From the NCBI GenBank assembly GCA_022712945.1, contig JAFLJP010000057.1:35449-99448 (forward strand): DNA of 64,000 bases. Direction: 5' to 3'. Position numbers and translations under genes: made by a program. The notes under the pieces are model-generated. The model ran no database searches. It was not told the DNA's origin and was given only the letters and a program-made list of their open reading frames with translations. The DNA is from Gammaproteobacteria bacterium (GTDB lineage: Bacteria; Pseudomonadota; Gammaproteobacteria; RBG-16-57-12). Positions within the stretch are counted from its first letter, which is position 1. Each line of letters starts with the position of its first letter. Positions 2,475 to 48,415 of this stretch are shown in pieces.

Positions 2475-3045
2475 GAAGCCTGTCCGAGAATAGATAGGCC
2501 TACTGCGAAAGCGTGTTTTTTGCTCATTTTCCCGCCAAATTTTTAGACTGTAAGTCATTCTGTGTAACGGCCGGTTTTAAATCACTGAGGGTTCTATTCT
2601 CCGCAGCTTGCTGCGGGGTAGTTTATTGTAGTCCGTCAAACGCTCTTCAAACTCAATGATAAAACGATTCAGTGCGGGTTTCCAATTCCTAATTGGCATT
2701 GTCCATTTTTTAGCCGCCGCTTGTGTCGCCAAGTAGATCACTTTTTTGGCTGAGTCATCCGTCGGAAACAGTTTCCGTTTTTTAATCGCTTTGCGAATAA
2801 CACTGTTCAGCGATTCAATGGCGTTGGTGGTGTAGATGACTTTACGAATATCATCAGGATAGTTGAACAAGGTGTTGAAGTTATGCCAATGATTTCGCCA
2901 TGAACGGCTGATCTGCGGGTATTTGTCATCCCAGCGCTCGGCAAATTGTTCGAGTGCTAACAGGGCTTCTTCTTTAGTCACTGACTGATAAATTTTCTTC
3001 AGCTCAGCTGCCACAGTCTTAATAGTCTTTCCATGGCACATACTT
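2475..3045 (-). mobile_element. Truncated IS256-family element: terminal repeat plus transposase 3' fragment
   Basis: The terminus 'agcctgtccgagaatagataggcctactgcgaaagcgtgttttttgctcattttcccgcc' is the reverse complement of the right end of the 24901-25067 element. It is followed by a transposase C-terminal fragment. The N-terminal ~250 codons are missing. Confidence 0.75.
2577..3041 (-). pseudogene. IS256/mutator-family transposase, C-terminal 154-aa fragment
   Basis: The translation (YTTNAIESLNSVIRKAIKKRKLFPTDDSAKKVIYLATQAAAKKWTMPIRNWKPALNRF) matches the conserved C-terminal block of IS256 transposases. Full-length proteins are about 400 aa. Confidence 0.8.
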
Positions 3046-3290
3046 CATCGTGTTACGCACCATGTGAATGATACAGAACTGTATTTGGGCCTGTGGATAT
3101 ACGGCATGCTGGGGCTAATGATAGGCAATTACACAGATTTCAGTACAGTCTCAGCCAGAGTTCGCTACTCTATTTAGAGCTCGTACATAAGTACGCATTT
3201 ATTTTTTTATTGGAGCGGTTTTATTGTTGACAACGGGGGAGTCCACATAAGTTACAAACTATCTTTCGTGCAAAGGTCTCAATACAACCT

Positions 3291-3388
3291 AGGAGGCTGT
3301 CCGAGAATAGAGGTTGTAGCGAGAGAGTGTGATTTTTAGTTCATTTTTTCGATAATTTGAGGCGAATGGTTGTTCTCTTTAACGAAAA
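3291..3388 (+). mobile_element. Solo IS256-type left-end fragment
   Basis: 'taggaggctgtccgagaatagaggttgtagcgagagagtgtgatttttagttcattttttcgataatttgaggcgaatggttgttctctttaacgaaaa' is about 95% identical to 24901-25000 and to 61731-61808. No adjacent transposase ORF. Confidence 0.7.
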
Positions 3389-3575: not shown

Positions 3576-6035
3576 ATGAATGATGTTAACGAAACAGCTG
3601 ATAAAACGACCAGCAACCAGGGACTCTCCAGCGATGAGGCAGCGCGTCGTCTAACACAATATGGCCCCAATGCTCTGGAAGATAAGCAGGTTTCTGTTCT
3701 AAGACGCCTGCTCGGTTATTTCTGGGGACCTATTCCGTGGATGATTGAAATCGCGGCGATACTCTCTGCGCTGGTGCAGCACTGGGCCGATTTCTGGATC
3801 ATTATCACACTGCTGATCTTTAATGCAGCAGTGGGTTTCTGGCAAGAGTACACCGCTGGTAATGCGGTGGCCGCATTGATGAAGCAGCTGGCGATGAGGG
3901 CGCGTGTACGGCGCGATAAACAGTGGCAAGAGATCGATGCACAGAGACTGGTGCCGGGCGATATCGTGCGCATTCGCCTCGGCGATGTCATTCCCGCTGA
4001 TGTTAAATTGATAGAGGGTGATTATCTGAGCGTGGATCAGTCGGCACTCACCGGCGAATCACTGCCCACCACCAAGCGCACAGGCGATGATGCCTTTTCG
4101 GGAACGGTAGTCAAACAAGGCGAGGTCGTTGCACAAGTGATGGCAACAGGGGCCAATACCCGTTTTGGTAAAACAGCCAGCCTAGTGCAGCAGGCAAAAA
4201 CCGTCTCTCACTTTCAGAAGGCGGTTCTCTCCATCGGTGATTACCTGATCTACGTCAGCCTAGCACTGGTGGCCATCCTGATTATCGTTGGCTTACACCG
4301 GGGTTCCGACTGGCTGGAGCTGGTGCAATTTGCACTGATCCTTACCGTTGCCTCCATTCCCGTTGCCATGCCGGCGGTGCTCTCCATGACCATGGCGATG
4401 GGGGCCATGGCGCTGTCGAAACGCAAGGCGATCGTTACCCGTCTGGAGTCGATCGAAGAGATGGCCAGCATGGATGTTTTATGCTCGGATAAAACAGGTA
4501 CCTTGACGCAAAATCGCCTGACATTAGGTGAGATCGAAATTTTTCATGCCAAGGATGAGCAGGAGGTCTTGTTAGCGGCGGCACAAGCCTCGCGTGAAGA
4601 GGACAGGGATGCCATCGATGATGCCGTGCTGGAAGGACTGAAAGATAAAAGTCAGCTCACGGCCTTTCGCCAAACCGATTTCATCCCCTTTGACCCCGTA
4701 CACAAGCGCACGGAAGCCACCTTACAGGATGCCAGCGGCAGCACCTTTCAAACCGTCAAAGGCGCACCGCAGGTTGTTATGGAAATGGCGGGACTTGAGG
4801 GGGAGGGGCTGACACGCGCCCAGCAAATCATCGATGACTTCGCGCAGCAGGGCTATCGCGCCCTCGGGGTTGCGCACCGGGAAAGTGGCTCCGCCAGTTG
4901 GACCTTTCTTGGCATTCTATCTCTGTTTGATCCACCACGCGAAGACTCTGCGACAACCATTGCCGAGACACGCGCCTACGGCGTTAGCATGAAAATGGTG
5001 ACGGGCGACAACTTGTCTATCGCCAAACAGATTGCCACAAAATTGGGGTTGGGCAGCAATATTTTGCGTGCTGATGCCTTGCCCAGCGGAAACAGTGGCC
5101 TAGATCATCGAGAGAGCATAAAGGCGGTAGAGGGCGCGGATGGCTTTGCCGAGGTCTTTCCCGAGCATAAATTCGAAATTGTTAAAATCCTGCAAAATCG
5201 CAATCACATTACCGGCATGACCGGCGACGGCGTCAACGATGCCCCAGCTTTAAAGCAGGCCGACGTGGGGATCGCCGTCAGTGGCGCAACCGATGCCGCA
5301 CGCGCCGCCGCAGATCTAGTACTGACCGGGCCGGGGCTATCAGTGATCACCCATGCCATCGAGGAGGCACGACGCATTTTCGAGCGTATGAATGCCTACG
5401 CTATTTACCGCATCAGCGAAACCATTCGCATCATGTTCTTCGTGGTGCTGGCGATGATTTTTTTCGACTTCTATCCCATCACCGCAATCATGATCATCCT
5501 GCTCGCCTTCTTCAACGACCTGCCCATCATGACCATCGCGTACGATCGCACCGGACTGGAGAAAGGCCCGGTGAGATGGAACATGCGCCAAGTCATTACC
5601 GTGGCCACCGTCATGGGTATCGTCGGCGTGGTGGGCAGCTTTGGTATGTTGCTGATTGCTATGGACTGGCTGCACCTGGACGTGGCGCAAATTCAGACCT
5701 ATGTATTCCTGAAAATGGCCATTGCCGGGCACCTGGTGTTGTTCGTTGCACGAACCAAAGGGCATTTCTGGGAGCGTCCCTGGCCCGCCCCGATCATGAT
5801 CTGGTCTGCGCTAATCACCAAACTGGCCGCAACACTGTTGGCGGCCTACGGCTTCGGACTCATCACCCCCATTACCTGGCCAGAAATCGCACTCATCTGG
5901 AGTTATTCGTTCGCCTCCGCCTTGCTCACCGACTGGGTCAAGGTTCAGGTCTATCGCCACATGTCACAGGAGGCACCTCGCCATCGTGGTTTTCTGGCGC
6001 GGCTGAAAAAATCCCTGCATGTTTTTGGACGTTAG
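3576..6035 (+). CDS. P-type ATPase, type IIIA (plasma-membrane H+-ATPase family)
   Basis: 819 aa with DKTGTLT, TGD and [10 protein letters not shown] motifs. The N-terminus resembles plant and fungal PMA/AHA proton pumps (GLSSDEAARRLTQYGPNALEDKQVSVLRRLLGYFWGPIPWMIEIAAI). This is not the MgtA or Kdp signature. Confidence 0.85.
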   Translation: MNDVNETADKTTSNQGLSSDEAARRLTQYGPNALEDKQVSVLRRLLGYFWGPIPWMIEIAAILSALVQHWADFWIIITLLIFNAAVGFWQEYTAGNAVAALMKQLAMRARVRRDKQWQEIDAQRLVPGDIVRIRLGDVIPADVKLIEGDYLSVDQSALTGESLPTTKRTGDDAFSGTVVKQGEVVAQVMATGANTRFGKTASLVQQAKTVSHFQKAVLSIGDYLIYVSLALVAILIIVGLHRGSDWLELVQFALILTVASIPVAMPAVLSMTMAMGAMALSKRKAIVTRLESIEEMASMDVLCSDKTGTLTQNRLTLGEIEIFHAKDEQEVLLAAAQASREEDRDAIDDAVLEGLKDKSQLTAFRQTDFIPFDPVHKRTEATLQDASGSTFQTVKGAPQVVMEMAGLEGEGLTRAQQIIDDFAQQGYRALGVAHRESGSASWTFLGILSLFDPPREDSATTIAETRAYGVSMKMVTGDNLSIAKQIATKLGLGSNILRADALPSGNSGLDHRESIKAVEGADGFAEVFPEHKFEIVKILQNRNHITGMTGDGVNDAPALKQADVGIAVSGATDAARAAADLVLTGPGLSVITHAIEEARRIFERMNAYAIYRISETIRIMFFVVLAMIFFDFYPITAIMIILLAFFNDLPIMTIAYDRTGLEKGPVRWNMRQVITVATVMGIVGVVGSFGMLLIAMDWLHLDVAQIQTYVFLKMAIAGHLVLFVARTKGHFWERPWPAPIMIWSALITKLAATLLAAYGFGLITPITWPEIALIWSYSFASALLTDWVKVQVYRHMSQEAPRHRGFLARLKKSLHVFGR

Positions 6036-6193
6036 GGATGTAGAAGAAGTTAACGTACCGTTATTACGCCGAATTGTTGTTCACCCTATCTAGGCCGGTA
6101 TTGGGCGCATAGTGAGCTACGCAACGAATACCGGCCTAGAGAGGGTGGGCGAAAAGAGAAGTAAGCGCGGTATTTTAATAAATTCTACATCCC
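6036..6193. mobile_element. MITE1 copy (158 bp). TIR is gggatgtagaa...ttctacatccc, 3-bp TSD is TTA, with an internal 13-bp palindrome
   Basis: The element is about 95% identical to 11083-11241. The target-site duplication TTA lies at 6032-6034 and 6194-6196. The ATPase stop codon TAG (6033-6035) straddles the TSD and element boundary. Confidence 0.85.
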
Positions 6194-6869
6194 TTAACAA
6201 TGAGAAGTTCAACTGTGACTACAACGCATTCCGCATGGAAACCTTTGAAAATACGACAGACCCTCTTGCTCATCGTACGGTCATTTTTTATCGCGTTCCC
6301 CGCCATGGCAACTGAGAATGTATCAATGCCCGTAACGGGGAAGCTCACGCTCTCCGGCATTGTCCAACTTGGTCACCCTGTGGGCCGGCCTTTCATGACA
6401 ATCATTCAGTCGTTGTCACCGCAGTGAAATGTTTCTCCAAAAACATCCATTTCAAGGCAACGAATATTTGGTAGGCTCAAGTCCGAGGCCTGAATCCCAT
6501 TCACAGTCGAATGCTGTATAGACTCAGCAGCAACGCCCTGGGAGGCTATGAATAGGTCTGGTTGGGCTTAATCAGAGTTTCTTTGAGTAATGCTCAATAA
6601 GCCTGTCCGCAAGGTCAGAAGATCATTGGTGGTGGTGATTTTGTGAGGTAGTATGTGCATAGGTCTTGTCTGTATCACCGATTGGGCACGGGTTTGTTTG
6701 GTCGCTAACCATTGTACAGCCAAGGTTTTTTGCGTTTTAGATATTTAAATCGGCTTCTTTGATGAGGCTGTTCTAAACTATTCAAGTTACGGTGTGGATG
6801 TGCGATAACCTCCTTCCACAGCATGCCCTGTAAATGGGTGGTAAAATGCCACCGTTGATGCCGACATAG

Positions 6870-9389
6870 ATGGAAAAAACCATGCCAAAATCGAATGCCA
6901 AATCTGCTCCCTGTGCCGCCAAGTTAATTACACTGCCGCCTTTGGCGATGGATGAGAAGGCGATATCTGAAGATCTGATTCGCTATTACAGCCGCACCTT
7001 GGGGCGTGAGCTTAAAAACTGCACCCCGCACTATCTCTATGAGGCGTTGGCCTACACGGTGCGCGATCGCCTGATGGAGCGCTGGAAAAATACCCGCGCA
7101 ACCTATGAAAATCTCGATGCCCGTCGTACCTGCTATCTCTCATTGGAGTTTTTGATGGGGCGTGCGCTGGGCAATGCGATGTTGAATCTCGGCATCGATG
7201 ATGCGGCTCATCGGGCACTGTATGATTACGGTATCGACCAGGAGCAGGTGGCGGAGAGTGAGCCAGATGCAGGTTTGGGTAATGGTGGTTTGGGCCGTTT
7301 GGCAGCCTGTTTTTTGGATAGCTGTGCCACCTTGCAGTTGCCGGTGCTGGGTTATGGTCTGCGTTATGAATATGGCATGTTTCGTCAGCAGTTGGAAAAT
7401 GGTCATCAACTGGAAGAGCCAGACCACTGGCTGCGTGATGGCCACCCCTGGGAGCTGGAGCGGCCGGAGTTTACCCAGCGCATTCATTTTGGTGGTCGCA
7501 CCGAGCACTACACCGATTATGCGGGTGTTACACGGGTTCGCTGGGTTGACGCTCTTGATGTTTTGGCGGTGCCTTACGATGTGCCGATTCCCGGTTTTGA
7601 GAACGATACGGTCAATAGCCTGCGTTTGTGGAAGTCGACTGCGACGGATGAGTTTAATTTGAGTGAGTTTAACGCCGGTGACTACGTTGAAGCGGTGGCC
7701 TCGAAAAATAAGGCTGAGCACATCACCATGGTGCTCTACCCGAACGATGCCAGTGAGAATGGCAAAGAGCTGCGGCTGCGCCAGCAATATTTTCTTGCCT
7801 CTGCCTCACTGAAAGATGTACTGCGTCGCTGGGTGCTTCTGCATGGCAATGACTTCAGCACCTTTGTGGATAAAAACTGTTTTCAACTGAATGATACTCA
7901 CCCCAGTATCGCGGTTGCTGAGCTGATGCGGCTATTGGTCGACGAACATCATATGGATTGGGATGGGGCGTGGGCGATTGTCACCAAAGTGATGGCTTAC
8001 ACCAATCACACTCTGCTTCCGGAAGCACTGGAGCGCTGGTCGGTACCGATGTTTGCCTACTTGTTGCCCCGTCTGTTAGAAGTGATTTATGAAATTAATG
8101 CCCGCTTTATGAAGCAGATTGCCCAACGCTGGCCGGGCGATACAGCGCGCCAGCAGCGGATGTCGATTATCGAAGAGGGGCCTTGCCAGATGATACGCAT
8201 GGCAAACCTGGCGATTGTTGGTAGCTTCTCGGTGAATGGGGTTGCTGAATTGCACTCCAAACTGTTGGTTGAAGGTCTGTTTAAAGATTTCAATGAGATG
8301 TGGCCAGAGAAATTTAATAACAAGACTAACGGTGTTACCCAGCGCCGCTGGTTGGCGATGTGCAACCCCGGTCTGAACAAATTGATCACTCAGACCATTG
8401 GTAGTGGCTGGATTACCGAGTTGGAGCAACTGCGCAAGTTGATTCCCTATGCGGCTAAAACACAATTTCGCAAGCAGTGGGCCGATGTAAAACTGGCCAA
8501 CAAACAGCGCCTTGCCGCACTGGTGGAGAGAGAGTGTGGAGTGAAATTTGATACCTCGGCACTGTTTGATGTGCAGGTGAAGCGTATTCATGAGTACAAA
8601 CGCCAGTTGTTGAATATCCTGCATGTGATTCACCTTTATGATCGCATCAAACGGGGGGATACCCAAAACTGGACCAAACGCTGTGTGCTGATCGGTGGCA
8701 AGGCGGCCCCGGGTTATGCGATGGCAAAGTCGATTATCAAGCTGGTTGGTAATGTGGCTGAAGTGGTTAACAACGACCCGGATGTGGGTGATCTGTTGAA
8801 AGTGGTCTTCTTCCCGAATTATCGTGTTTCGGCGATGGAGGTAATTGCCCCAGGCTCTGACCTATCGGAGCAGATCTCTACCGCCGGTAAAGAGGCTTCT
8901 GGTACTGGCAACATGAAGTTCATGATGAATGGTGCGGTGACTATCGGTACGCTGGATGGAGCCAATATCGAGATCCGGGAAGAGGTGGGGGATGATAACT
9001 TCTTCCTGTTCGGTTTGACGGCACCAGAGGTTGATGCGTTGCGCCGCGATTACCGCCCCTGGGATTATATCAATCACGATGCCGATTTCAGCGCCGTCAT
9101 GAGCCTGCTGCAAAGTGGTCACTTCTGTCAGTTTGAGGCGGGTATATTTGATGACATCATCAATAGTATTACCAACCCCCACGATCCTTGGCTGACCGCC
9201 GCAGATTTTCGCAGTTTCGTGGATGCGCAGACGCAGGCCGCTGCCGCCTACCGTGATCAAAAACGTTGGGTACGGATGAGTATTTTAAATACAGCCACCA
9301 GTGGTAAATTTTCCACTGACCGTACTATGCGTGATTACAATGAAGAGATCTGGAAGCTTGAAGCGGTAAAACCGGCTGTGGTGGGCTAA
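6870..9389 (+). CDS. glgP: Glycogen/maltodextrin phosphorylase
   Basis: 839 aa. Carries the pyridoxal-phosphate site EASGTGNMKFMMNGA and the typical phosphorylase N-terminal region. Confidence 0.95.
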   Translation: MEKTMPKSNAKSAPCAAKLITLPPLAMDEKAISEDLIRYYSRTLGRELKNCTPHYLYEALAYTVRDRLMERWKNTRATYENLDARRTCYLSLEFLMGRALGNAMLNLGIDDAAHRALYDYGIDQEQVAESEPDAGLGNGGLGRLAACFLDSCATLQLPVLGYGLRYEYGMFRQQLENGHQLEEPDHWLRDGHPWELERPEFTQRIHFGGRTEHYTDYAGVTRVRWVDALDVLAVPYDVPIPGFENDTVNSLRLWKSTATDEFNLSEFNAGDYVEAVASKNKAEHITMVLYPNDASENGKELRLRQQYFLASASLKDVLRRWVLLHGNDFSTFVDKNCFQLNDTHPSIAVAELMRLLVDEHHMDWDGAWAIVTKVMAYTNHTLLPEALERWSVPMFAYLLPRLLEVIYEINARFMKQIAQRWPGDTARQQRMSIIEEGPCQMIRMANLAIVGSFSVNGVAELHSKLLVEGLFKDFNEMWPEKFNNKTNGVTQRRWLAMCNPGLNKLITQTIGSGWITELEQLRKLIPYAAKTQFRKQWADVKLANKQRLAALVERECGVKFDTSALFDVQVKRIHEYKRQLLNILHVIHLYDRIKRGDTQNWTKRCVLIGGKAAPGYAMAKSIIKLVGNVAEVVNNDPDVGDLLKVVFFPNYRVSAMEVIAPGSDLSEQISTAGKEASGTGNMKFMMNGAVTIGTLDGANIEIREEVGDDNFFLFGLTAPEVDALRRDYRPWDYINHDADFSAVMSLLQSGHFCQFEAGIFDDIINSITNPHDPWLTAADFRSFVDAQTQAAAAYRDQKRWVRMSILNTATSGKFSTDRTMRDYNEEIWKLEAVKPAVVG

Positions 9390-11070: not shown

Positions 11071-11082
11071 TTTTTCAGATTA

Positions 11083-11241
11083 GGGATGTAGAAGAAGTTA
11101 AAGTACCGTTATTACGCCGAATTTTTGTTCACCCTATCTAGGCCGGTATTGGGCGCATAGTGAGCTACGCAACGAATACCGGCCTAGATAGGGTGGGCGA
11201 AAAGACAAGTAAGAGCGGTATTTTAATAAATTCTACATCCC
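11083..11241. mobile_element. MITE1 copy (159 bp), TSD TTA
   Basis: Same TIRs and internal sequence as 6036-6193. TTA lies at 11080-11082 and 11242-11244. The element fills the 177-bp gap between the upstream gene's stop (11248) and the downstream gene's start (11070). Confidence 0.85.
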
Positions 11242-11247
11242 TTAGGC

Positions 11248-11670
11248 TCAATAGAGTAGCCCGTAGTTGGCGATGCCGCCTACGTGGGTAAACAGCCAGA
11301 GGGGAATGAAGATGCGCCCCATTCGTCGGTGTTTCTGGTTGATACGCCGTGCGAGCGGGGATTCCCCCTTATGAAATCGTGCCCAGAGCATCAGTGTGCT
11401 GCCCACTAATGGAATCAGGGCGATTGAGCCGTGGATGATAAGCCAGGTGAGCATGAGCGGGTCGGGCAGTTGGGGCATCTCACCAGGGATCAGGTAGCGA
11501 AGCAGGTAGCTGATAACAAAGGTCCAAGAGCCGACAACCATCAAAATCATGATGATACGGTGGCGCTGGGTGCGGGAATTGACCGCATCACGCCAGGCCA
11601 GTAGCAGCAGCCCGATGGCCAGGATGCTCCAGAGAAGGCCGAAATTTACTGAGAGTTGAGTGAAAGTCAC
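11248..11670 (-). CDS. Small 4-TM membrane protein (DUF420-like), function unknown
   Basis: 140 aa with four hydrophobic helices. The family assignment is tentative. Confidence 0.4.
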   Translation of the reverse strand: MTFTQLSVNFGLLWSILAIGLLLLAWRDAVNSRTQRHRIIMILMVVGSWTFVISYLLRYLIPGEMPQLPDPLMLTWLIIHGSIALIPLVGSTLMLWARFHKGESPLARRINQKHRRMGRIFIPLWLFTHVGGIANYGLLY

Positions 11671-12364: not shown

Positions 12365-12392
12365 AACGGTTTGTTAACTCTTTGAGCCTAAA

Positions 12393-12550
12393 GGAAGCTC
12401 TGAATAAGCGGGGTTAGAATTAGGCTGAGCGGGAATTGTTCTCATTTGTTTCGAAATGCGCAGTAATAGTCGCTCTATTGGAGCAATTTTCGGGACAAAT
12501 GAGGGCGATTTCAGCCAGTATAAAATAATCATGACTTGTTCAGAGCTTCC
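12393..12550. mobile_element. MITE2 copy (158 bp). TIR is ggaagctctgaataag...cttgttcagagcttcc, 4-bp TSD is TAAA
   Basis: TAAA lies at 12389-12392 and 12551-12554. The element is about 90% identical, inverted, to 15104-15261. The stop codon (TAG, minus strand) of the downstream ORF overlaps the last base plus the TSD. Confidence 0.85.
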
Positions 12551-13074
12551 TAAAGGGTAATGTTGATCTGCTGTTCGTCATCGTTGATCCACAGCTCACC
12601 ATCCTGAAGTGTACATTGCAGCGACATAGTACGTTTTACCAATGAGCTGAGATTGTCAACATTGGCTTGGTCTAGATGTTTGATGGTGAGGTTGTCAAAG
12701 CGCGCCAGTGTGCTCTGTATCTGTTTCAACCAAGGGGCTGTGGCGCGGGGCTGGTAGGTGTAGATAATCACCTGTTTTGCGCGGTGACAAGCGTGGCGAA
12801 TGCGCTTCTCATCGGGCTGGCCCAGATCAATCCACAGCAAAATTTCATCAATATCACTCTTTTTCCACAGTGCCGGTTCATCTTGAGATGAAAGCCCTTT
12901 GCCGAATTGAAGCGCTGGATCGGCATTAAGGATAAAAGCGAGCAGTCGCACCATCATCCGCTGTTCACTCTCTGATGGGTGACAGGCGATAGTGAGCGGG
13001 TGCTGCGCATAGTAGTTGCGATCCATATCAGTGATATTGATATCCGCTTTATAAATAGTCGAGCTGTTGGCCAT
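12550..13074 (-). CDS. yaeQ: YaeQ family protein
   Basis: The N-terminus (MANSSTIYKADINITDMDRNYYAQHPLTIACHPSESEQRMMVRLLAF) closely matches E. coli YaeQ. Confidence 0.85.
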   Translation of the reverse strand: MANSSTIYKADINITDMDRNYYAQHPLTIACHPSESEQRMMVRLLAFILNADPALQFGKGLSSQDEPALWKKSDIDEILLWIDLGQPDEKRIRHACHRAKQVIIYTYQPRATAPWLKQIQSTLARFDNLTIKHLDQANVDNLSSLVKRTMSLQCTLQDGELWINDDEQQINITL

Positions 13075-13155
13075 TCGGCACTTCCTTCAAATAGAGACCT
13101 TTGCACGATTCATATTTCCCTTGCTGGAACAAAAACTATTTTCCATGCAAAGCTT

Positions 13156-13710
13156 TCAAATAGTATAAATGCCAAATTCCCAGTATTTTTCCCCCGGGTT
13201 ACTTGGGCCGCTCCAGTCATTAGCGATAAGGACCTTTGAGATGTAGCGATTCATGAATCCGTGCCCGACATGAAGAACCGAGCCGCTATCTTTTGCAATG
13301 GCTATCAACTTGTTTGCAGCCTGCAGTGCTCTCTCTTTAGTGAATGCCATCGACTCACCATGGGATGAATAGCCACAAAACCACAGTAATCTGAATAGTG
13401 CCACCCAAAAGAGTGGTGAGGCATTCGGGGTGCGCCACTCTCCGTAGGGCAGCGCCACCTCTCTGAATAGTGGATCAATGTGGGTGATCTTCACACCCAG
13501 CCGTTCAGCCGATGCCACAGAGCGGCACAAATCACTACAGACCACCGCCTTACATGCCTGCGCCATGTTCATGGTCTCGGTTGATGGCTGACTTTTATGG
13601 TCAATTCCGGCGGCATTATAGGCATCAATCCACTGATGAAGCTCACTCGCCTTTAATTTTCCCGAGTAGCCGACGCTAGAAGCTCCGTGCCGAAGCAGGG
13701 TGATTTCCAC
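13156..13710 (-). CDS. Histidine phosphatase family (phosphoglycerate-mutase-like) protein
   Basis: Carries the RHG catalytic motif (ITLLRHGASS). The ORF track starts at 13851, overlapping the upstream gene by 134 nt. An in-frame GTG at 13708-13710 lies immediately before the RHG block, 8 nt after the upstream stop. I take that as the likelier start, by inference. Confidence 0.55.
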   Translation of the reverse strand: MEITLLRHGASSVGYSGKLKASELHQWIDAYNAAGIDHKSQPSTETMNMAQACKAVVCSDLCRSVASAERLGVKITHIDPLFREVALPYGEWRTPNASPLFWVALFRLLWFCGYSSHGESMAFTKERALQAANKLIAIAKDSGSVLHVGHGFMNRYISKVLIANDWSGPSNPGEKYWEFGIYTI

Positions 13711-15090: not shown

Positions 15091-15103
15091 CGCGTTATCT
15101 TAA

Positions 15104-15261
15104 GAAAGCTCTGAATAAGTCATGATTATTTTAGGCTGGCTGAAATCGCCCTCATTTATCCCGAAAATTGCACCAATAGAGCGACTATTACTGCACATTT
15201 CGAAACAAATGAGAACAATTTCCTCTCAGCCTAAATTTAACCAGACTTATTCAGAGCTTCC
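15104..15261. mobile_element. MITE2 copy (158 bp), inverted orientation, TSD TTAA
   Basis: TTAA lies at 15100-15103 and 15262-15265. The stop codon of the upstream gene at 15262-15264 lies inside the TSD. The element ends 14 bp before the arfB ATG. Confidence 0.85.
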
Positions 15262-17316
15262 TTAACAACGAAAACGTCTGACTGCCTGAATAAATGCACG
15301 CGGCTCCCCCGGTTTCTGCTGCGTGGTATAGCGTAGTTGAATGTAGTGATTAAAGAGTGACTTTATCTCTTGGCGCTGTTTGGGTAGTTTGAACATCGCC
15401 TGCTGACAGCGCTGTTTTGGCCCGATCCAGGGGGCGTTATCCACTCCGCATTTGGCGAGCTGATGGCAGAGGGTTTGGTAGGCTTGTTGCAGTGGGTCCT
15501 GCACTCTCTGCCGTTGGTATAACAGGTAGAGTGATAGCAGCGCTAAAAAGCCCAGTATGATAAGCGTCATAAGGCCCACAAGGGTAGATATGTTCAGCTC
15601 ACCCATGCCCAACCGTTCAAACAGCTGTTGCTGTTTTTTCTGATTAAAACCGACCACCCACTGATTCCATTGGTGGTTGGCAGCATCCCAACTGCGCAGG
15701 GTTTGTAACCAGGCGCGAGCCATCCAGCGGGTATCGGGGTTGAACAGCGCATCGTTACGGGTTTCACTAAAGCGGTACTGATCCTCAAAGGCTTCGATGC
15801 GATCGGGTGCGATGGCGCGGGTGGGGTCAACCCGTACCCAACCCTCACCTTGCAACCACACTTCTGCCCATGCGTGAGCATCGGACTGGCGCACCAGCAG
15901 GTAGTCACCCAGCTCATTGTATTCACCACCTTGGTAACCGGTCACAACCCGAGCAGGAATCCCGGCCGCCCGCATCAGGGTGACAAATGCAGCAGCGTAG
16001 TGCTCACAAAAGCCTTTTTTTGCCTCAAACAGAAACTGGTCGATGGGATCGTCACTCTCCAATCGTGGTGGTGTTCGGGAGTAGTAGAAGGGTTGCTGGC
16101 GAAAATAGTCTAGCGCCAGGGAGACCCGCCCCCGGTCACTGGCAGCCTGTTGTCGCCACTGTTGGGCAAGTGCACGGGTTTGCGGATTGCGATGACTGGG
16201 CAGCTGAATTGCCCGTTCGTACTCCTGCATCAGCAGTTGATCGTTCCGGTAGTTGAGTGCAGAGCGGGTGGTGTAGCGGTACACCTCATTAACGCTCTGC
16301 TCACTCAGTAGCAGGAACTCTCTGCGCAATACGCTGTTATCCGGTTGTTCGGTGATAAGGTCCAGCGCAAACAGCCAGCGTCGGTGGTGTGGTTGCAGGG
16401 TCACGGTGTATTCAATCGGCTCACTGAGTGGGGCGACCTCGGGGGCCGCCAGACTATTGAGCAGGTCATTTTTGTTCAGTGCACTCCAGCGGCGGCCATC
16501 GGTTTGCCAAAGCACCGGGCCACGCCAGTAGAGCTGCTCGGCAGCGGGTATTTCACCGCTAAAGGTGACACGAAAGGCCACCTTGTCGGAATCGGCCAGA
16601 TGGCTGATATCACCAATACTCATCTCATCACTAAGGCCGGTTTTACCCGCGCTGCTGCTATTGGGCAGTGCCCACAGCGGCCCCGGTATGCGAGGCACCA
16701 GGATAAACAATATCAGCATCAACGGCAGGGCTTGCAGTAGCAGTGTGCTGGCACTTTTGAGGTATCGGCTCCGCTGCATCTCTCTGTTGTCATCGGGGTG
16801 GTTGAGCACCAGCAGTGCCGCAGTGAGCAGCACCACCACGGCGAGCAGATAGAGGCCGGATAAAATTGATTGGTCGTAAAGAAAGCCGCTGAGCACTAAA
16901 AAATAGCCGAGCAGTATGGTAATGGTGGCATCCCGCAGGGTGCGTAGTTCAAGCAGTTTAAGGCAGAGCATCAGCGTCAGTAGCGTGGTGCCGGCATCCA
17001 GACCATTCAGGGTATGGTATTGGAGATAGGTGCCGGATAGCAGCGCTGCCGCCAGCGTTAGCCTGAAAACGGTGTGGGGCAGCGACCACCTGTTCAGTTC
17101 GCTGAGCAGTCGCCAGCCCAATATTATCAGGCAGATCGTCACCACCCAGCCGGGCTGTCGCAACAGGTGGGGGATGAGGACCAGTAGCAGCGCACCGAGC
17201 AGCCAGATGATTCCGTTGCTCGGAGCCACCTGTTGCTCCTCCCGATAGTGGGCAGGTTTCTGTTTGCGCCACCAGATCATCCGTTTTTCCCGTACAGCGC
17301 CAGCGCACTCAGACAC
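15262..17316 (-). CDS. Transglutaminase-domain membrane protein (TgpA-like, DUF3488 plus transglutaminase core)
   Basis: 684 aa. The N-terminus has multiple TM helices. The transglutaminase core is GFCEHYAAAFVTLMRAAGIPARVVTGY...DAHAWAEVW. It is the third gene of a moxR-DUF58-tgpA arrangement. Confidence 0.8.
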   Translation of the reverse strand: MSECAGAVREKRMIWWRKQKPAHYREEQQVAPSNGIIWLLGALLLVLIPHLLRQPGWVVTICLIILGWRLLSELNRWSLPHTVFRLTLAAALLSGTYLQYHTLNGLDAGTTLLTLMLCLKLLELRTLRDATITILLGYFLVLSGFLYDQSILSGLYLLAVVVLLTAALLVLNHPDDNREMQRSRYLKSASTLLLQALPLMLILFILVPRIPGPLWALPNSSSAGKTGLSDEMSIGDISHLADSDKVAFRVTFSGEIPAAEQLYWRGPVLWQTDGRRWSALNKNDLLNSLAAPEVAPLSEPIEYTVTLQPHHRRWLFALDLITEQPDNSVLRREFLLLSEQSVNEVYRYTTRSALNYRNDQLLMQEYERAIQLPSHRNPQTRALAQQWRQQAASDRGRVSLALDYFRQQPFYYSRTPPRLESDDPIDQFLFEAKKGFCEHYAAAFVTLMRAAGIPARVVTGYQGGEYNELGDYLLVRQSDAHAWAEVWLQGEGWVRVDPTRAIAPDRIEAFEDQYRFSETRNDALFNPDTRWMARAWLQTLRSWDAANHQWNQWVVGFNQKKQQQLFERLGMGELNISTLVGLMTLIILGFLALLSLYLLYQRQRVQDPLQQAYQTLCHQLAKCGVDNAPWIGPKQRCQQAMFKLPKQRQEIKSLFNHYIQLRYTTQQKPGEPRAFIQAVRRFRC

Positions 17317-19168: not shown

Positions 19169-19375
19169 GTGATCGGCTGATCATTCCATAGTTTTAGTCA
19201 GGGCGGGGCACCAAACTTAATAGCCACCAGATTTGGCTGGTGGTGGTTGAGCGCATTGGTGTCACAGGGGAATTTATGGGGAAGTCCCGTACCCGTGATT
19301 ACGGGTGGCTGAATAAATATTTCCTGTGGAATCAAGAGGCAAGTGAGATTGTACATAATTTATGAATGATCCGGG

Positions 19376-19711
19376 CTAAATGTGTGACGCTTGATCTAAA
19401 ACTTCAGATGCCCACTGATTAATGCTCTTTCCACGTATTTGAGCAGCGGTTGCAACAGCCGCGTGCACATCAGGAGGTACCCTCAGCATCAGCTTGCCAG
19501 AATAGGTTTTTTGTGCCGCTCTACCCGTCTCTTCGCTAATCGAAATATAGTTATCAACAGACTCATGGAAAGCGCTCTCTAGCTCATCGACGGTGGTGCC
19601 ATGAAAACCGACAATATCTTTAATGCCTGCCAAATGGCCAACAAAAATACGGTCATCTTCATCGTATTCATAATGTGATACCAGCCTGTTCCAGGAATTT
19701 TCGAGCATCTT
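19376..19711 (-). CDS. hicB: HicB-family antitoxin (RHH C-terminus)
   Basis: Has the HicB N-domain (YEYDEDDRIFVGHLAGIKDIVGFHGTTVDELESAF) and a C-terminal ribbon-helix-helix (YSGKLMLRVPPDVHAAVATAAQIRGKSINQWASEVL). The start is uncertain. The longest ORF, to 19774, would overlap hicA by 107 nt. Confidence 0.7.
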   Translation of the reverse strand, partial: KMLENSWNRLVSHYEYDEDDRIFVGHLAGIKDIVGFHGTTVDELESAFHESVDNYISISEETGRAAQKTYSGKLMLRVPPDVHAAVATAAQIRGKSINQWASEVLDQASHI

Positions 19712-24697: not shown

Positions 24698-24840
24698 ACT
24701 GCTAGTACAGCAACCACTTTATATTGGCGGAATGCCACAGGGTCGCCCGAAGAGTTGCTCTGTCTGCTTCCATGGCGGCGTTGTGCTTCTTGTGAAGGGA
24801 ACAACCATTACCTGCAAAGCACGCCTTGCCACGAAAACAG

Positions 24841-24877
24841 ACAGAACAACGGATCCGTCAATATAAAGTGGTTGATG
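24841..24877. repeat. 37-bp repeat R, copy 2
   Basis: Matches 2433-2469 at 36 of 37 positions. It lies 23 bp from the MITE-like IS derivative. Confidence 0.6.
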
Positions 24878-24900
24878 TACTAGTTTCAGTTAGCTACTTT

Positions 24901-25067
24901 TCTAGGAGCCTGTCCGAGAATAGAGGTCGTAGCGAGAGAGTGTGATTTTTAGTTCATTTTTTCGACAATTTGAGACGAATGGTTGTTCCCTTTAACGAAA
25001 ATTGGCGGGAAAATGAGCAAAAAACACGCTTTCGCAGTAGACCTATCTATTTTCGGACAGGCTCCTA
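24901..25067. mobile_element. MITE-like IS256-derived element (167 bp) with 22-bp perfect TIRs (ctaggagcctgtccgagaatag)
   Basis: The left 100 bp match the solo ends at 3291-3388 and 61731-61808. The right 65 bp match the IS end at 2475-2540 in reverse complement. No coding capacity. Confidence 0.8.
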
Positions 25068-25101
25068 GGTTACTATGACGCCATTATAACAGAGGCCGTG
25101 G

Positions 25102-33210: not shown

Positions 33211-33282
33211 GGGATGTAGAATTTATTAAAATACCGCTCGGACTTGTCTTTTTTCCCACTCTATCTAGACCGGTATTCGTTC
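33211..33282. mobile_element. MITE1 truncated copy (about 72 bp of one end)
   Basis: Starts with the TSD-like TTA (33208-33210) plus 'gggatgtagaatttattaaaataccgc...ctatctagaccggtattcg', then diverges ('ttcagagcttg'). Confidence 0.55.
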
Positions 33283-34342: not shown

Positions 34343-34368
34343 ATGATTATCTGTCTGAAAATTATTTA

Positions 34369-34527
34369 GGAACGAGCGCGGAATAACTTATGCAGTTATG
34401 ACGCAGAAATTTTTCTCCAGTTCAAACGATCTCAAGAGGCGCATAGCTGGCTTACGTAACGATTGAGATCGTTTGAACTGGGGTGAAAGAGCAAGTCAGA
34501 ATGTAGGCGTTATTTCGTGATCGTTCC
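34369..34527. mobile_element. MITE3 copy (159 bp). TIR is ggaacgagc...gatcgttcc, TSD is TTA, with an internal 15-bp palindrome
   Basis: About 93% identical to 42036-42194. TTA lies at 34366-34368 and 34528-34530. The internal perfect inverted repeat is ttcaaacgatctcaa / ttgagatcgtttgaa. It sits in the divergent promoter region, 27 bp from the apaG ATG. Confidence 0.85.
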
Positions 34528-34603
34528 TTAGGGAAACTTTGAGCAAACGGCTCAGAGCTACCCCAATTATAACCGAACACCATCCGAGGGGAAGGGGAGT
34601 TAA

Positions 34604-40598: not shown

Positions 40599-42020
40599 GT
40601 GAGCGAGCAAAACAAGTCGAATCAAAGGAGTGAGGGTTTAGGTGAGCTTTACGAAGAGTCTCATCACGTTAATGTGGGGGGGGAGACGATTCATGCTAAA
40701 CGTATGGGTGGCCGTTTTCGTCAATATAAAGATCTAGTCTGGCTCTTTTGGATCGGCTATCTTGTGTTACCTTTTTTGCGTGTGAATGGTGAGCAGATTG
40801 TTCTATTCGATATTCCCGCACGGCAGTTTCATTTCTTTGGCGCTACCATCTATCCTCAGGATATCTGGATGCTCTCCTTTGTTCTTGTTCTTTTAGCGAT
40901 GATGCTCTTTGGTATTACCGCTATCGCAGGCCGCGTCTTCTGTGGTTTTTTCTGCTTTCAAACTGTATGGACAGATTGGTTTGTCTGGATCGAAGAGAAA
41001 ATTGAAGGCACGCCACGACAGCGACGTAAATTAGATGAGTCATCATGGAACAGTGAAAAAATAACCAAACGTGGTACGAAGTACGCAATATGGTCTTTGA
41101 TCTCTCTGGTTACCGGTATCAGCTTTGCTGCTTATTTTATGGATTCCTATGAGTTGCTAAAAGACTTAGTGACCTTTGATGCCCATATTGCCGCCTGGAC
41201 AACGCTGATATTGTTTTTTCTGGGTACCTTTATCCTTGCTGGTTTTATGCGTGAGCAGGTCTGTTTTTGGTTATGCCCTTACGCACGAATCCAGTCTGTT
41301 ATGGTGGATCGTGACTCTATTATCCCCTCTTATGATATTGCCCGTGGAGAGCCGCGTGGTAAGCTTAAAAAGGGTGTAAATGATGACCGAAAAGGTGATT
41401 GTGTCGATTGCAATCAGTGTGTAGTTGTCTGCCCGACAGGTGTTGATATTCGTGAAAGTGCTTTGCAGGAAGGCTGCATTATGTGTGGCCTCTGTGTTGA
41501 TGCTTGCGATACGGTGATGGAAAAAATTGGCAAGCCAAAAGAGTTAATTCGTTACGCATCGGACAATGAGATGCAGGGCCAAGCTCAACCTGCACTGCTG
41601 AAGCGCCCCAGAGTCATCATCTACCTGGCTATCTCTCTCGCATCAATATTGGCGATTATTTATGGTTTGGCCAGCATCCCGGCATTGGAGCTGCACGTCG
41701 TACACGAACGTCAACCGCTCTATGTGAAAATGTCTGATGGCTCGATACAAAATACCTATACCATCAAGATCTTAAATAAATTACCCGAAGCGCTTGATGT
41801 TAAGGTGACCATTGAAGGTGTTGCGGGTGCTGATATTATTGATTTGCCCGACGTGTTGACCCTGGATACGGCCAAGGTGGTTCCTTATACTATCCGTATT
41901 AAAGCGCAACAGGCGGGTATGGCAGGGGATAATGTGCCAGTTATATTCAAAGTTGAGGCACTGAATGATCCCAGTATAAACGAAGAGTATGAAAGCTTTT
42001 TTATTGGCCCATCTCGATAG
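40599..42020 (+). CDS. ccoG: Cytochrome c oxidase accessory protein CcoG (polyferredoxin)
   Basis: Has several TM helices, two 4Fe-4S motifs (CVDCNQCVVVCP; CIMCGLCVDAC), and a C-terminal FixG-like domain. Confidence 0.9.
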   Translation: MSEQNKSNQRSEGLGELYEESHHVNVGGETIHAKRMGGRFRQYKDLVWLFWIGYLVLPFLRVNGEQIVLFDIPARQFHFFGATIYPQDIWMLSFVLVLLAMMLFGITAIAGRVFCGFFCFQTVWTDWFVWIEEKIEGTPRQRRKLDESSWNSEKITKRGTKYAIWSLISLVTGISFAAYFMDSYELLKDLVTFDAHIAAWTTLILFFLGTFILAGFMREQVCFWLCPYARIQSVMVDRDSIIPSYDIARGEPRGKLKKGVNDDRKGDCVDCNQCVVVCPTGVDIRESALQEGCIMCGLCVDACDTVMEKIGKPKELIRYASDNEMQGQAQPALLKRPRVIIYLAISLASILAIIYGLASIPALELHVVHERQPLYVKMSDGSIQNTYTIKILNKLPEALDVKVTIEGVAGADIIDLPDVLTLDTAKVVPYTIRIKAQQAGMAGDNVPVIFKVEALNDPSINEEYESFFIGPSR

Positions 42021-42220
42021 GAAAGTTCTGAATAAGGAACGAGCACGGAATAACTTATGCAATTATGACGTAGAAATTTTGCTCCCGTTCAAACCAACTC
42101 AAGAGGCGCATAGCTGGCCTACGTAACGATTGAGATCGTTTGAACTGGGGTAAAAGAGCAAGTCAGAATGTAGAAGTTATTTCGTGATCGTTCCTAAGTC
42201 ATGATTTATTCAGAGCTTCC
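42021..42220. mobile_element. Composite: a 38-bp MITE2 mini-variant (TSD ATAG) carrying a nested MITE3 (42036-42194, TSD TAA)
   Basis: 'gaaagttctgaataa | MITE3 | taagtcatgatttattcagagcttcc' is flanked by ATAG at 42017-42020 and 42221-42224. MITE3 duplicated the TAA of 'ctgaaTAAgtcatg', which is seen intact in MITE2 at 15104-15261. The ccoG stop TAG lies inside the ATAG TSD. Confidence 0.85.
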
Positions 42221-42234
42221 ATAGGTAGGGTATA

Positions 42235-47974: not shown

Positions 47975-48415
47975 ATGCTTGTTGATATTATTATTGCGTT
48001 ATCTGCGGCTATTGCCGGGTTTTTAATTGGTCGCTCCTATAGCGGTGAGTCAAAGCAGGCTATGCAAGCGAATGAACAGCGATTGGCAGAGGCAGAGCAG
48101 GCATTGGCAGGCTATCGTGAAAAAGTGACCGAGCATTTTCAGGGGACGGCGCAACTTGTCGAGCGAATGAATGAGAATTATCGGGAGGTTTATCAGCACC
48201 TTGCCGAAGGTGCGCAGCAGTTAACCGATTGTGAAACAACCCTTAAGGCAGCGTATCCGCCTATGATTTCTGAACAATCAGCGGATGCGTTACCGGTAGG
48301 GGTGGCGGCATCTCACGAAGCACAGGCCGAGTCAGCTACAGAAACGCCGGAAAAAAGGGCGGATGAAAGTGAGCTGCGCGATCCGGCAGCCTCGGCGAGA
48401 CAGGCTGGCTTTTAA
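47975..48415 (+). CDS. yhcB: YhcB/ZapG (DUF1043) inner-membrane protein
   Basis: An N-terminal TM helix, then LAGYREKVTEHFQGTAQLVERMNENYREVYQHLAEGAQQL, matching the YhcB core. Confidence 0.8.
   Translation: MLVDIIIALSAAIAGFLIGRSYSGESKQAMQANEQRLAEAEQALAGYREKVTEHFQGTAQLVERMNENYREVYQHLAEGAQQLTDCETTLKAAYPPMISEQSADALPVGVAASHEAQAESATETPEKRADESELRDPAASARQAGF

Follow-up and report, generated by a model that had tools for sequence, protein, structure and literature searches.

Stop codons as insertion sites of IS5-type MITEs in a hydrothermal-vent bacterium: a probable joint effect of stop-like targets and persistence at gene 3′ ends

PIF/Harbinger transposons duplicate a TWA target. The IS1031 group is described as duplicating a three-nucleotide target (PMC2516522), and IS5 inserts at Py-T-A-Pu with a duplication of 4 bp (PMC5493358). 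In Coxiella burnetii, QMITE1 and QMITE2 extend into functional genes at their 3′ ends, covering 2 bp of ubiB, 1 bp of kdgK and 3 bp of CBU_2020; it is the 3′ end that is hit in all affected functional genes, protein length is unaltered, and the cause was given as unknown (PMC5896051). Elements of the Correia/NEMIS, ERIC/RU-1 and RUP types are found downstream of genes and are co-transcribed with them, occasionally fusing with or replacing a C-terminus or stop codon (PMC2229807, PMC2759123).

The stretch of DNA analysed here, 64,000 nt from a hydrothermal-vent bacterium (the window), contains at least eight families of palindromic MITEs of about 159 bp each. Terminal inverted repeats of 11–39 nt are present in families A, B, C, D, E, F and H, and lengths of 141–182 bp leave no room for a transposase gene; no autonomous partner was found for any family in the window or the relatives searched. 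Each family has 2–5 copies within the 64 kb and more in relatives. Exact empty sites in relatives prove the target duplications (TSDs) of B2 (TTAA), B1 (TTTA) and A2 (TAA), all read on the gene strand, and those of C1 (TTA), C2 (TAA) and F (CTATTTGG), and each element in a nested insertion has its own TSD. For B1, B2, A2, C1 and F, transposition with TSDs is thus demonstrated by the unoccupied loci of related strains. Families B and H belong to the IS5 group, and D and E probably do; these families duplicate 4 bp of a Py-T-A-Pu target (YTAR: CTAG, CTAA, TTAG or TTAA). The duplication in families A and C is 3 bp, TTA/TAA, like that of IS1031-like IS5-family groups and eukaryotic PIF/Harbinger, which suggests a placement in an IS5 subgroup. 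All of these IS5-type or TTA/TAA targets include a TAA or TAG triplet.

The placement of these MITEs resembles that of the Coxiella elements, which also overlap gene 3′ ends by 1–3 bp or more, except that QMITE2 makes direct repeats of 7–9 bp that are not a stop-like target, whereas in the window the cause is traceable to the sequence of the TSD. The Correia/NEMIS, ERIC/RU-1 and RUP elements are like the window MITEs in having a target with TA in it and in being transcribed into long hairpins (PMC2229807, PMC2759123), but they belong to an IS630/Tc1-like lineage with a 2-bp TA TSD, and their target alone spells no stop. Placement on stop codons is a largely expected outcome of known transposon biology, and the stop-codon MITEs reveal no new mechanism.

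An earlier reading of this DNA without database searches (the sequence-only reading) had noted that, in 5 of 7 full-length MITEs, the insertion coincides with or adjoins the stop codon of an upstream gene. Such positions are real: the TSD contains or splits the stop at the H+-ATPase gene (A1), yaeQ (B1), tgpA (B2) and ccoG (B3), with gene identities confirmed with Pfam. The tally itself was incomplete, as the window holds about 11 independent TA-targeting insertions (A1–A4, B1–B3, C1, D, E and H, with F, whose TSD is 8 bp, counted apart), and two further on-stop candidates were added, an H remnant at the stop of a HicB-family gene and an A remnant at the stop of an argA-like gene.

The H+-ATPase reading frame (3576–6035) ends in a TAG at 6033–6035. 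Base by base, this stop consists of the TA of a TSD and the first G of A1 (6035–6193, plus strand; 159 bp, terminal repeats GGGATGTAGAA...TTCTACATCCC), which is flanked by TTA at 6032–6034 and 6194–6196. The evidence for the A1 TSD is the alignment of its reconstructed empty site, GGACGT-TAA-CAATGAGAAG, to the C-terminal region of a diverged orthologue in L013, GGACAT-CGA-CAATGAAGAAG; a search for an exact empty site of A1 gave none, as orthologues of 90–93% protein identity differ in their downstream DNA. The predicted RNA hairpin of A1 has an energy of −88 kcal/mol (z = −11.5). A2 (11083–11241, plus strand), 97% identical to A1, has the TSD TTA (11080–11082 and 11242–11244), which reads as an in-frame TAA on the gene strand, and its empty site is preserved in L006 as ACC-TAA-CCTGAATAATTTG. 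The TGA stop of the neighbouring DUF420 gene (11248–11250, minus strand) had been put 3 bp from this element; that distance holds for the TSD (11242–11244), but the stop lies 6 bp from the MITE end at 11241.

The remaining copies of family A are more varied. A3 (33211–33281, minus strand) is truncated, has TTA on its left flank and lies away from stop codons. A4 (53527–53639, minus strand; 113 bp) has an internal deletion and the TSD TAA (53524–53526 and 53640–53642), and starts 17 bp past the TAA (53504–53506) of a cytochrome c gene; a hairpin and T-run downstream of it, judged by eye, form the putative intrinsic terminator of that gene. A 15-bp sequence at 59810–59824 (minus strand; CTTCTATATCCC) is a putative remnant of a family A terminus, a weak, short match, and adjoins the TTA (59825–59827) with which the argA-like gene (59825–61141, minus strand) ends, read there as TAA. 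Together, families A and C resemble IS1031-like elements and PIF/Harbinger-Tourist in that they duplicate TTA/TAA in 14/14 copies (11/11 family A copies with readable flanks, 3/3 family C copies) and are short and palindromic with ends that start with GG. They differ in that no transposase or autonomous copy was found for A and C. Searches with the A left end in GTDB representative genomes returned a chance match in a coding region of an unrelated MAG, and neither a degenerate pattern for both A ends in JGI metagenomes nor blastn with A1 against plasmids gave any match, so that no autonomous relative of family A was found in these three collections.

Family B supplies three on-stop insertions. 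The yaeQ gene (12550–13074, minus strand) has a TAG stop, the reverse complement of 12550–12552, which base by base comprises the last C of B1 (12393–12550, minus strand; 158 bp) and the TA of its TSD, TAAA (12389–12392 and 12551–12554). Its empty sites in L005 and L006, CTC-TTTAAGAGACCGTTATG, have a TAA stop and a 9-bp spacer. B2 (15104–15261, minus strand; 158 bp) lies between copies of TTAA at 15100–15103 and 15262–15265, the latter containing the tgpA TAA (reverse complement of 15262–15264, coordinates checked); the ATG of arfB follows 9 bp past the other copy, and L006 and L007 retain the empty site GTTG-TTAA-GATAACGCGATG. The B2 hairpin is predicted at −99 kcal/mol (z = −16). The third, B3 (42021–42220, plus strand), is a composite of two IS5-type terminal repeats that form a 38-bp ‘mini-B’ (42021–42035 and 42198–42220), with MITE C2 (42036–42194) nested inside and flanked by its own TSD, TAA (42033–42035 and 42195–42197). 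The TSD of B3 is ATAG (42017–42020 and 42221–42224), and we checked that its left copy includes the ccoG TAG (42018–42020). Because L136 and L137 have mini-B without C2 at the same place, and L138 has a degenerate form of it, the B insertion is old and the C2 insertion specific to the lineage of the window; a fully empty ccoG–ccoH junction was not found, mini-B being common to all relatives examined.

The ends of B1 match the IRL and IRR of IS5. In a direct comparison of family B ends GGAAGCTCTGAATAAGCGGGG and GGAAGCTCTGAACAAGTC with the IRL (GGAAGGTGCGAATAAGCGGGG) and IRR (GGAAGGTGCGAACAAGTC) of IS5A from Escherichia coli K-12, 18 of 21 and 15 of 18 bases, respectively, are identical, and the family B terminal repeat is of the GGAAGGTGCGAATAAG type. 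Family B thereby keeps the IRL/IRR distinction of IS5, along with its 4-bp TSD and a Py-T-A-Pu consensus from the 138 termini described below. It differs from IS5 in being non-autonomous, in its length of 158 bp (38 bp in the mini form), and in that one of the three window copies has a strict YTAR target and the other two the near-variants TTTA and ATAG. Neither the window nor its close relatives yielded an autonomous element carrying the family B terminal repeat. A 1172-bp autonomous element in L016 has this repeat and encodes a transposase with DDE_Tnp_1 and DUF772 domains, an example of the IS5-group enzymes that go with the GGAAGCTCTGAA repeat; a transposase of this kind may be the one that acts on these MITEs.

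Outside families A and B, the insertions fall both on and away from stop codons. C1 (34369–34527, plus strand; 159 bp, GGAACGAGC...GATCGTTCC), with the TSD TTA at 34366–34368 and 34528–34530 and an empty site in L136 (GAAATTATTTAGGGAAACTTTGAGC), lies between divergent apaG and aldolase genes, away from stop codons. So do MITE E (24702–24883, plus strand; 182 bp, ends bounded by CTAG), which sits in a divergent promoter region, and MITE D (24902–25068, plus strand; 159-bp core at 24906–25064, GAGCCTGTCCGAGAATAGA.., CTAG on both flanks), which shares that region; fragments of D occur at 2472–2545, 3289–3388 and 61728–61808. Of a family H element, about 120 bp remain from its right-hand side (19255–19375, plus strand), and these could be aligned with full copies in L136, L006 and L110, which are 161 bp long with terminal repeats CCCGGGCAATTCAT.. 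and 4-bp TSDs. The terminus of the remnant, ..CCGGG, is followed by CTAA (19376–19379), which contains the TAG stop of the HicB-family gene (reverse complement of 19376–19378; HicB by Pfam); no empty site was found for this remnant. MITE F (48428–48568, plus strand; 141 bp) is a different type of transposon that has no TA target, with an 8-bp TSD at 48420–48427 and 48569–48576 and an empty site in L138 (TTTTAACCATCTGTTTAGTTAGC). It begins 4 bp past the TAA (48413–48415) of a zapG-like gene, between convergent genes, and is an internal control for a 3′-end position without a stop-like target.

Overall, the TSD falls on a stop codon in 5 of the 11 TA-targeting insertions, with the A-like remnant at 59810–59824 a possible sixth. 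A random non-disruptive position in the window would be on a stop with a probability of 0.014, and the observed frequency is far beyond this positional chance. When chance is matched to the target motif, the probability rises to 0.13 for a random non-disruptive TTA/TAA site and 0.16 for a YTAR site, and by a binomial estimate (about p = 0.02) the observed frequency is only marginally beyond it.

A larger sample came from a metagenome scan with the family B terminal repeat, which gave 120 loci with 138 termini, mostly of MITEs of 158–160 bp. YTAR flanks 91 of the 138 termini (66%; TTAG 32, TTAA 24, CTAG 18, CTAA 17). Exact abutment on a stop was seen in 26 of 119 YTAR-flanked termini, compared with 6.9 expected from the non-disruptive YTAR sites of the same loci (p = 4 × 10⁻⁹), and all 26 are independent loci. 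The distance between stop and element end has a spike at 0 (26 termini), with 3 termini at −1 and 1 at −2; none of the metagenome termini falls in the class in which a terminal G rebuilds TAG (d = +1), which occurs only where the TSD ends in TA, as it does for A1 and B1 of the window. The null model uses crude ORF calls, in which uncalled small genes inflate the count of ‘free’ sites; the excess holds at ORF cut-offs of 50, 100 and 150 aa (p ≤ 2 × 10⁻⁶ each) and is still 2.6-fold at the 50-aa threshold, where 91% of the sequence is coding. The occupied fraction of YTAR sites reaches 0.16 at the stop, 0.087 at 1–20 nt after it and 0.02–0.05 elsewhere (p = 2 × 10⁻⁹), so that enrichment is limited to within 20 nt of the stop. 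Since the stop is not significantly preferred over YTAR sites 1–20 nt downstream (p = 0.14), the effect is one of proximity to the 3′ end and not of the stop as such.

These counts separate the two families. If the pattern were a local coincidence, copies elsewhere would lie at random distances from stop codons; family B-type termini do not, and their excess among metagenome loci shows that the pattern is more than local. For family A the suspicion of coincidence is not overturned, as the seven additional copies seen in relatives all lie away from stops. With 1–2 of about 12 copies on stops, the family matches the motif expectation and has no extra enrichment, and because of those seven copies the position of A1 fits what the target motif alone would give by chance.

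We consider it very probable that MITEs come to lie on stop codons through IS5-type T-A-rich targets (YTAR, TTA/TAA) that spell stops, combined with the persistence of insertions at gene 3′ ends. The sequence-only reading had posed targeting of AT-rich oligomers containing TAA or TAG and survival of insertions at 3′ ends as alternatives, and both contribute. Targeting is evident in the TTA/TAA duplications of families A and C, in YTAR at two-thirds of the B-type termini and in the IS5 identity of the B repeat, and the 3′-end effect holds statistically in the YTAR occupancies; ‘AT-rich’ does not stand as a property of the target beyond the TSD. Inside genes, TAA and TAG triplets occur only out of frame, where an insertion destroys the gene, and for this reason stop codons make up a large part of the targets that a compact genome can lose without harm (13–16% in this window). 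An insertion on the stop itself is harmless: the duplication leaves an intact stop on the gene side (B2, B3), or, where a staggered cut splits TA|A, the terminal 5′-G of the element rebuilds TAG (A1, B1), and the other copy of the duplication preserves the downstream spacer unchanged. Close to a gene 3′ end, within about 20 nt, insertions would persist 3–5 times more often than at equal non-coding targets elsewhere, the likeliest cause being that other sites disturb promoters, leaders or terminators.

We infer that selection accounts for this additional enrichment, and the readings that do without it, or that give the elements another role, fare less well. Random choice among YTAR or TTA/TAA sites that break no gene, with no further 3′-end effect, is an unlikely account: it would serve for the marginal excess in the window, with stops at 13–16% of the harmless motifs, and for family A, but it leaves unexplained both the 26 of 119 B-type termini on stops, in excess at every ORF threshold, and the drop in occupancy from 0.16 at the stop to 0.02–0.05 past 20 nt. 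Alternatively, the excess could arise at insertion, with the transposase drawn to a feature of gene ends such as readily melted AT-rich DNA, transcription termination zones or nucleoid-protein sites. A proposal based on SIDD connects the IS5 hot spots of E. coli with destabilised DNA (PMC5493358), and the gradient toward the stop is compatible with such a bias, which might also come from transcription, replication or nucleoid proteins. Yet over 40 nt of context, occupied YTAR sites do not exceed free non-coding ones in AT content (+0.059 and +0.055, p = 0.69), and occupied sites show no base preference outside the 4-mer. This comparison of flanks led us to reject an AT-rich or SIDD-type context for insertion; we read it as favouring a selection filter and consider an integration bias very unlikely.

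Elements on stops might instead have been kept for a function, as co-transcribed 3′ hairpins that serve as stabilisers, RNase III sites, attenuators or operon decouplers. This mode of action has been reported for Correia/NEMIS and ERIC elements, the predicted hairpins of A1 and B2 are very stable, the 38-bp mini-B at the ccoG stop has been kept in three lineages (CcoG 92–94% identical to that of the window), and three family B copies occupy operon spacers of ~9–10 bp with no evident loss of the downstream genes. Set against this, close relatives vary in whether they carry B1, B2, A2 and C1, which are therefore recent and dispensable, and unrelated families, including F with its different target, are placed alike. 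The hairpins are followed by no U-tract, A4 lies upstream of what appears by eye to be the gene’s own terminator, promoter and terminator scans over the MITEs score no higher than shuffled controls, and no Rfam covariance model matched anywhere in the window at gathering score; we regard such exaptation as highly improbable. The repeats are also palindromic, intergenic and highly structured, as would be expected of REP/REPIN-like or other structured intergenic repeats that gather after genes and are not transposons. The exact TSDs with matching empty sites in six insertions, the IS5 terminal repeats at the ends and the nested insertions with their own TSDs contradict this, and we judge it almost certainly wrong. 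The comparison of empty and filled sites refuted a non-transposon origin.

The joint account of stop-like targets and 3′-end persistence offers a testable reason for the frequent contact of bacterial MITEs with the last bases of genes: the IS5-type target is itself a stop codon, preserved by the duplication or by the terminal G of the element. The dataset of about 120 loci points to a 3–5-fold survival advantage within 20 nt of the gene end. More speculatively, and in our view with only a small chance of being right, IS5-type MITEs in general might have stop codons as their evolved ‘safe harbours’, with termini shaped for harmless landing, as in the 5′-G that rebuilds a split TA|A to TAG, and 3′ hairpins sometimes kept as operon regulators; if true, this would give a general account of the unexplained 1–3-bp overlaps of MITEs with gene 3′ ends in Coxiella and elsewhere. 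Within 22 nt, the terminal repeat GGAAGCTCTGAATAAGTCATGA offers a stop in each of the three frames, and it is here that 11 metagenome ORFs terminate. For annotation, stops and C-termini beside such repeats can be trusted or reconstructed. For assembly, short-read contigs of the host break within these MITEs, and short contigs of the same strain end inside them.

The placement of MITEs on the stop codons of upstream genes is real, and both halves of the explanation proposed by the sequence-only reading, targeting of TAA/TAG-containing oligomers and survival of insertions at gene 3′ ends, prove right, with selection as the probable filter in the second. The H+-ATPase TAG (6033–6035) consists of the TA of the target-site duplication (TSD) TTA (6032–6034) and the first G of A1 (6035–6193). 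On the minus strand, the yaeQ TAG (12550–12552) joins the terminal base of B1 (12393–12550) to the TA of TSD TAAA (12551–12554), and the tgpA TAA (15262–15264) lies within TSD TTAA of B2 (15262–15265). The ccoG TAG (42018–42020) lies within TSD ATAG (42017–42020) of the composite B3. These four overlaps had been read correctly to the base. For the DUF420 gene the nearness stands but the distance does not: its TGA (11248–11250) is 3 bp from the TSD of A2 and 6 bp from the end of A2 itself. A candidate H remnant is flanked by CTAA (19376–19379) that includes the stop of a HicB-family gene, and, as a weak candidate, a 15-bp A-like remnant is followed by TTA (59825–59827), the triplet that ends an argA-like gene. 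Away from stops are the truncated A3 and, in divergent promoter regions, C1, D and E; A4 is 17 bp past a stop and not on it, upstream of the gene's apparent terminator as judged by eye.

The window (50% G+C) comes from an uncultured gammaproteobacterium from hydrothermal-vent metagenomes, and the nearest named proteins are in 'hydrothermal vent metagenome' records and in Gammaproteobacteria and Sedimenticola MAGs. Short palindromic repeats are numerous. Searching the window by BLAST with its intergenic repeats, and for inverted repeats, defined families A (159 bp, start GGGATGTAGAA), B (158 bp, start GGAAGCTCTGAATAAG), C (159 bp, start GGAACGAGC), D (159-bp core, CTAG at both sides), E (182 bp), F (141 bp) and H (161 bp, start CCCGGGCAATTCAT), besides at least one further small repeat family; Rfam gave no match anywhere in the window. 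The families are new, the kind of element already known. The unrelated families A, B, C, H and the D core are nearly equal in length (for example, window 6035–6193, 12393–12550, 34369–34527 and 24906–25064, and 8502–8662 in the related locus L136), which hints that IS5-type MITEs are mobilised best at about this size.

Compared with the ends of IS5A, taken directly from the annotated E. coli K-12 genome, the left end of B1 (GGAAGCTCTGAATAAGCGGGG) matches IRL (GGAAGGTGCGAATAAGCGGGG) at 18 of 21 bases and its right end (GGAAGCTCTGAACAAGTC) matches IRR (GGAAGGTGCGAACAAGTC) at 15 of 18; like IS5 of E. coli, family B keeps the IRL/IRR distinction. IS5 duplicates a Py-T-A-Pu (YTAR) tetranucleotide (PMC5493358). 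Scanning metagenomes with GRAAGYTCTGAAYAAGTCWKG recovered at least 120 loci with this terminal repeat (L016–L135), most of them MITEs and one a 1172-bp element (L016) that encodes a DDE_Tnp_1 and DUF772 transposase. Among the matches listed, 32 of 66 complete B-type elements were 158–160 bp and some 229 bp, and the 4-mers beside 138 termini were TTAG (32), TTAA (24), CTAG (18), CTAA (17) and, for the remainder, mostly one-base variants. Family H also has 4-bp TSDs (TTAA, CTAA and ATAG). All 14 copies of families A and C, seven of them A copies of 86% identity in vent-metagenome contigs, have TTA or TAA as their TSD. A three-nucleotide TSD of TTA/TAA type is also that of PIF/Harbinger elements, and no autonomous partner for family A was found in GTDB representative genomes, JGI metagenomes or plasmids. 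Within the IS5 family, the IS1031 group has a three-nucleotide target (PMC2516522).

Relatives, found as members of the YaeQ cluster at 90% identity or by homology to the ATPase and CcoG, contain the empty sites that the sequence-only reading had proposed looking for, at five junctions, and these identify A2, B1, B2, C1 and F as transposons. Between tgpA and arfB, GTTG-TTAA-GATAACGCGATG (L006/L007) corresponds to TTAA[B2]TTAA in the window. Between yaeQ and the MBL-fold gene, CTC-TTTAAGAGACCGTTATG, with a TAA stop (L005/L006), corresponds to CCC-TTTA[B1]TTTA-GG (TSD TTTA); here the stop codon itself was cut, and TAG was formed with the G of the element. Downstream of DUF420, ACC-TAA-CCTG (L006) corresponds to GCC-TAA[A2]TAA-TCTG (TSD TAA). 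At apaG–aldolase, ATTATTTAGGGAAAC (L136) lacks C1 (TSD TTA), and downstream of a zapG-like gene L138 lacks F (TSD CTATTTGG). No exact empty site for A1 was found among the ATPase-homologue relatives; the pre-insertion stop was probably TAA, split and rebuilt as TAG, because the reconstructed site GGACGT-TAA-CAATGAGAAG aligns with GGACAT-CGA-CAATGAAGAAG, the end of the L013 orthologue. At the ccoG–ccoH junction, a 38-bp element of two terminal repeats only (mini-B) is old, since it is common to the window, L136/L137 and, in degenerate form, L138. C2 entered its internal TAA later, in the window lineage only, and L136 gained an H element beside it.

How much of this placement does the target explain? 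Stops of the 64 window ORFs are TAA (31), TGA (19) and TAG (14), and the probability of being on a stop is 0.014 for a random non-disruptive position, 0.128 for a non-disruptive TTA/TAA site and 0.160 for a non-disruptive YTAR site. Against the motif-matched null, 5 of 11 TA-targeting insertions on stops gives only about p = 0.02 (our own binomial estimate); most of the effect in the window is therefore due to the target motif. The position of A1 is what a TTA/TAA target alone produces about once per eight insertions.

The metagenome set has the statistical power that the window lacks. Among the matches listed it comprises 183 unique termini, and for ORFs of 100 aa or longer that point at the element we recorded how far the stop lies from the element end. 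At distance 0 (the stop being the last three TSD bases) there are 26 termini, all independent loci, versus 3 at −1 and 1 at −2. On-stop termini make up 26 of the 119 flanked by YTAR (22%), where non-disruptive YTAR site-sides of these loci, 5.3% of them on a stop, would give 6.9 (p = 4e-9). The result held, among the matches listed, at ORF cut-offs of 50 aa (coding 0.91, null 0.090, observed 0.235, p = 2e-6), 100 aa (0.84, 0.053, 0.218, p = 8e-10) and 150 aa (0.78, 0.035, 0.193, p = 3e-11), and in 16 of the 66 complete elements one or both ends coincide exactly with a stop. Copies elsewhere, on which the sequence-only reading had let a local coincidence depend, thus follow the pattern for B-type ends and not for family A, with 0 of 7 extra copies at stops in vent-metagenome contigs.

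The additional effect is nearness to the gene 3′ end, not stop recognition. Among the matches listed, YTAR occupancy (observed/available) was 0.16 at stops, 0.087 at 1–20 nt past them and 0.017–0.053 in every other class, including upstream of starts; sites within and beyond 20 nt of a stop differ (p = 2e-9), and stops do not differ significantly from 1–20 nt past them (p = 0.14). A DNA-melting bias at integration is argued against, as occupied sites among the matches listed are no richer in AT than free ones (p = 0.69) and show no base preference outside the 4-mer. F has an unrelated 8-bp, non-TA target, yet begins 4 bp past a stop in the 26-bp spacer of convergent genes, which shows a positional filter at work without a stop-like target. 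Target choice followed by purifying selection, the latter step being the one we infer, is the best explanation. A regulatory role may hold for some copies, given very stable predicted RNA hairpins (−88 and −99 kcal/mol, z = −11 and −16) and the age of the ccoG mini-B. As a general account it is opposed by presence/absence variation among close relatives, the absence of a U-tract after the hairpins, promoter and terminator signal not above shuffled controls, and the same behaviour in unrelated families.

Coxiella QMITE1/2 overlap 3′ ends of functional genes by 1–3 bp, 'reason unknown' (PMC5896051), and Correia/NEMIS, ERIC/RU-1 and RUP are known to lie downstream of genes, to be co-transcribed and to form C-terminal fusions (PMC2229807, PMC2759123). 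We found no paper attributing such overlaps to the IS5-type target itself, an account to which the known YTAR specificity leads directly.

Such insertions are harmless. A stop that falls entirely within the TSD (TTAA, ATAG or CTAG, for example) survives in the copy on the gene side; a cut between TA and A is repaired to TAG by the element's 5′ G, as for A1 and B1, and all these families start with GG. The second TSD copy preserves the downstream spacer; the arfB ATG remains 9 bp from TTAA. The B-type terminal repeat stops entering ORFs at +11 (TGA), +15 (TAA) and +22 (TGA), one per frame, and among the matches listed 11 metagenome ORFs terminate inside it. In L006 (6258–6418) the MBL-fold gene enters an H element for 16 nt and ends at a TAA in its terminal repeat (213 aa versus 212 aa in the window), its C-terminus rewritten by the MITE. 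In L060 (655–813), both CTAG copies flanking a 158-bp MITE are TAG stops of two convergent genes, which before insertion overlapped in one CTAG.

The spacer 3′ of the zapG-like gene (26–50 bp) is a recurrent safe site, struck independently in different lineages: it holds F in the window (48413–48595), a 26-bp mini-H and a B-end fragment in L136 (14855–14940), and nothing in L138 (10634–10700). Nested or adjacent insertions use the elements' own target motifs, as with C2 in the mini-B TAA (42021–42220), D in an internal CTAG of an A copy (L009, 3472–3573), A directly adjoining B (L022, 950–1271) and H adjoining mini-B (L136, 8459–8667), with a further such locus in L138 (4356–4406). Short-read contigs of the window's strain (L001, L002, L003 and L008) end inside MITEs, examples being 50 bp beyond the ATPase stop and immediately past yaeQ; the lineage's MAGs are therefore expected to break at MITEs and to under-report them.

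A 14/15-nt inverted repeat, TTAGGCTCAATAGAG/CTCTTTGAGCCTAA (11242–11256 and 12376–12392), brackets the DUF420–MBL segment, with A2 adjoining one side and B1 the other; the B1 flank has two additional 7-bp blocks relative to relatives, GGCTCAA and TTAACAA. The extra small repeat (AATAGAGACCTNTGCA...CTTGCTG..ACAAAAA) has copies between the His_Phos and yaeQ genes (13085–13165) and upstream of the argA-like gene (61245–61295). On the minus strand at 2577–3041, an ORF of 154 aa carries a Transposase_mut (IS256-family) domain; it looks like a fragment and lies between pieces of D and E (2426–2545 and 3289–3388).
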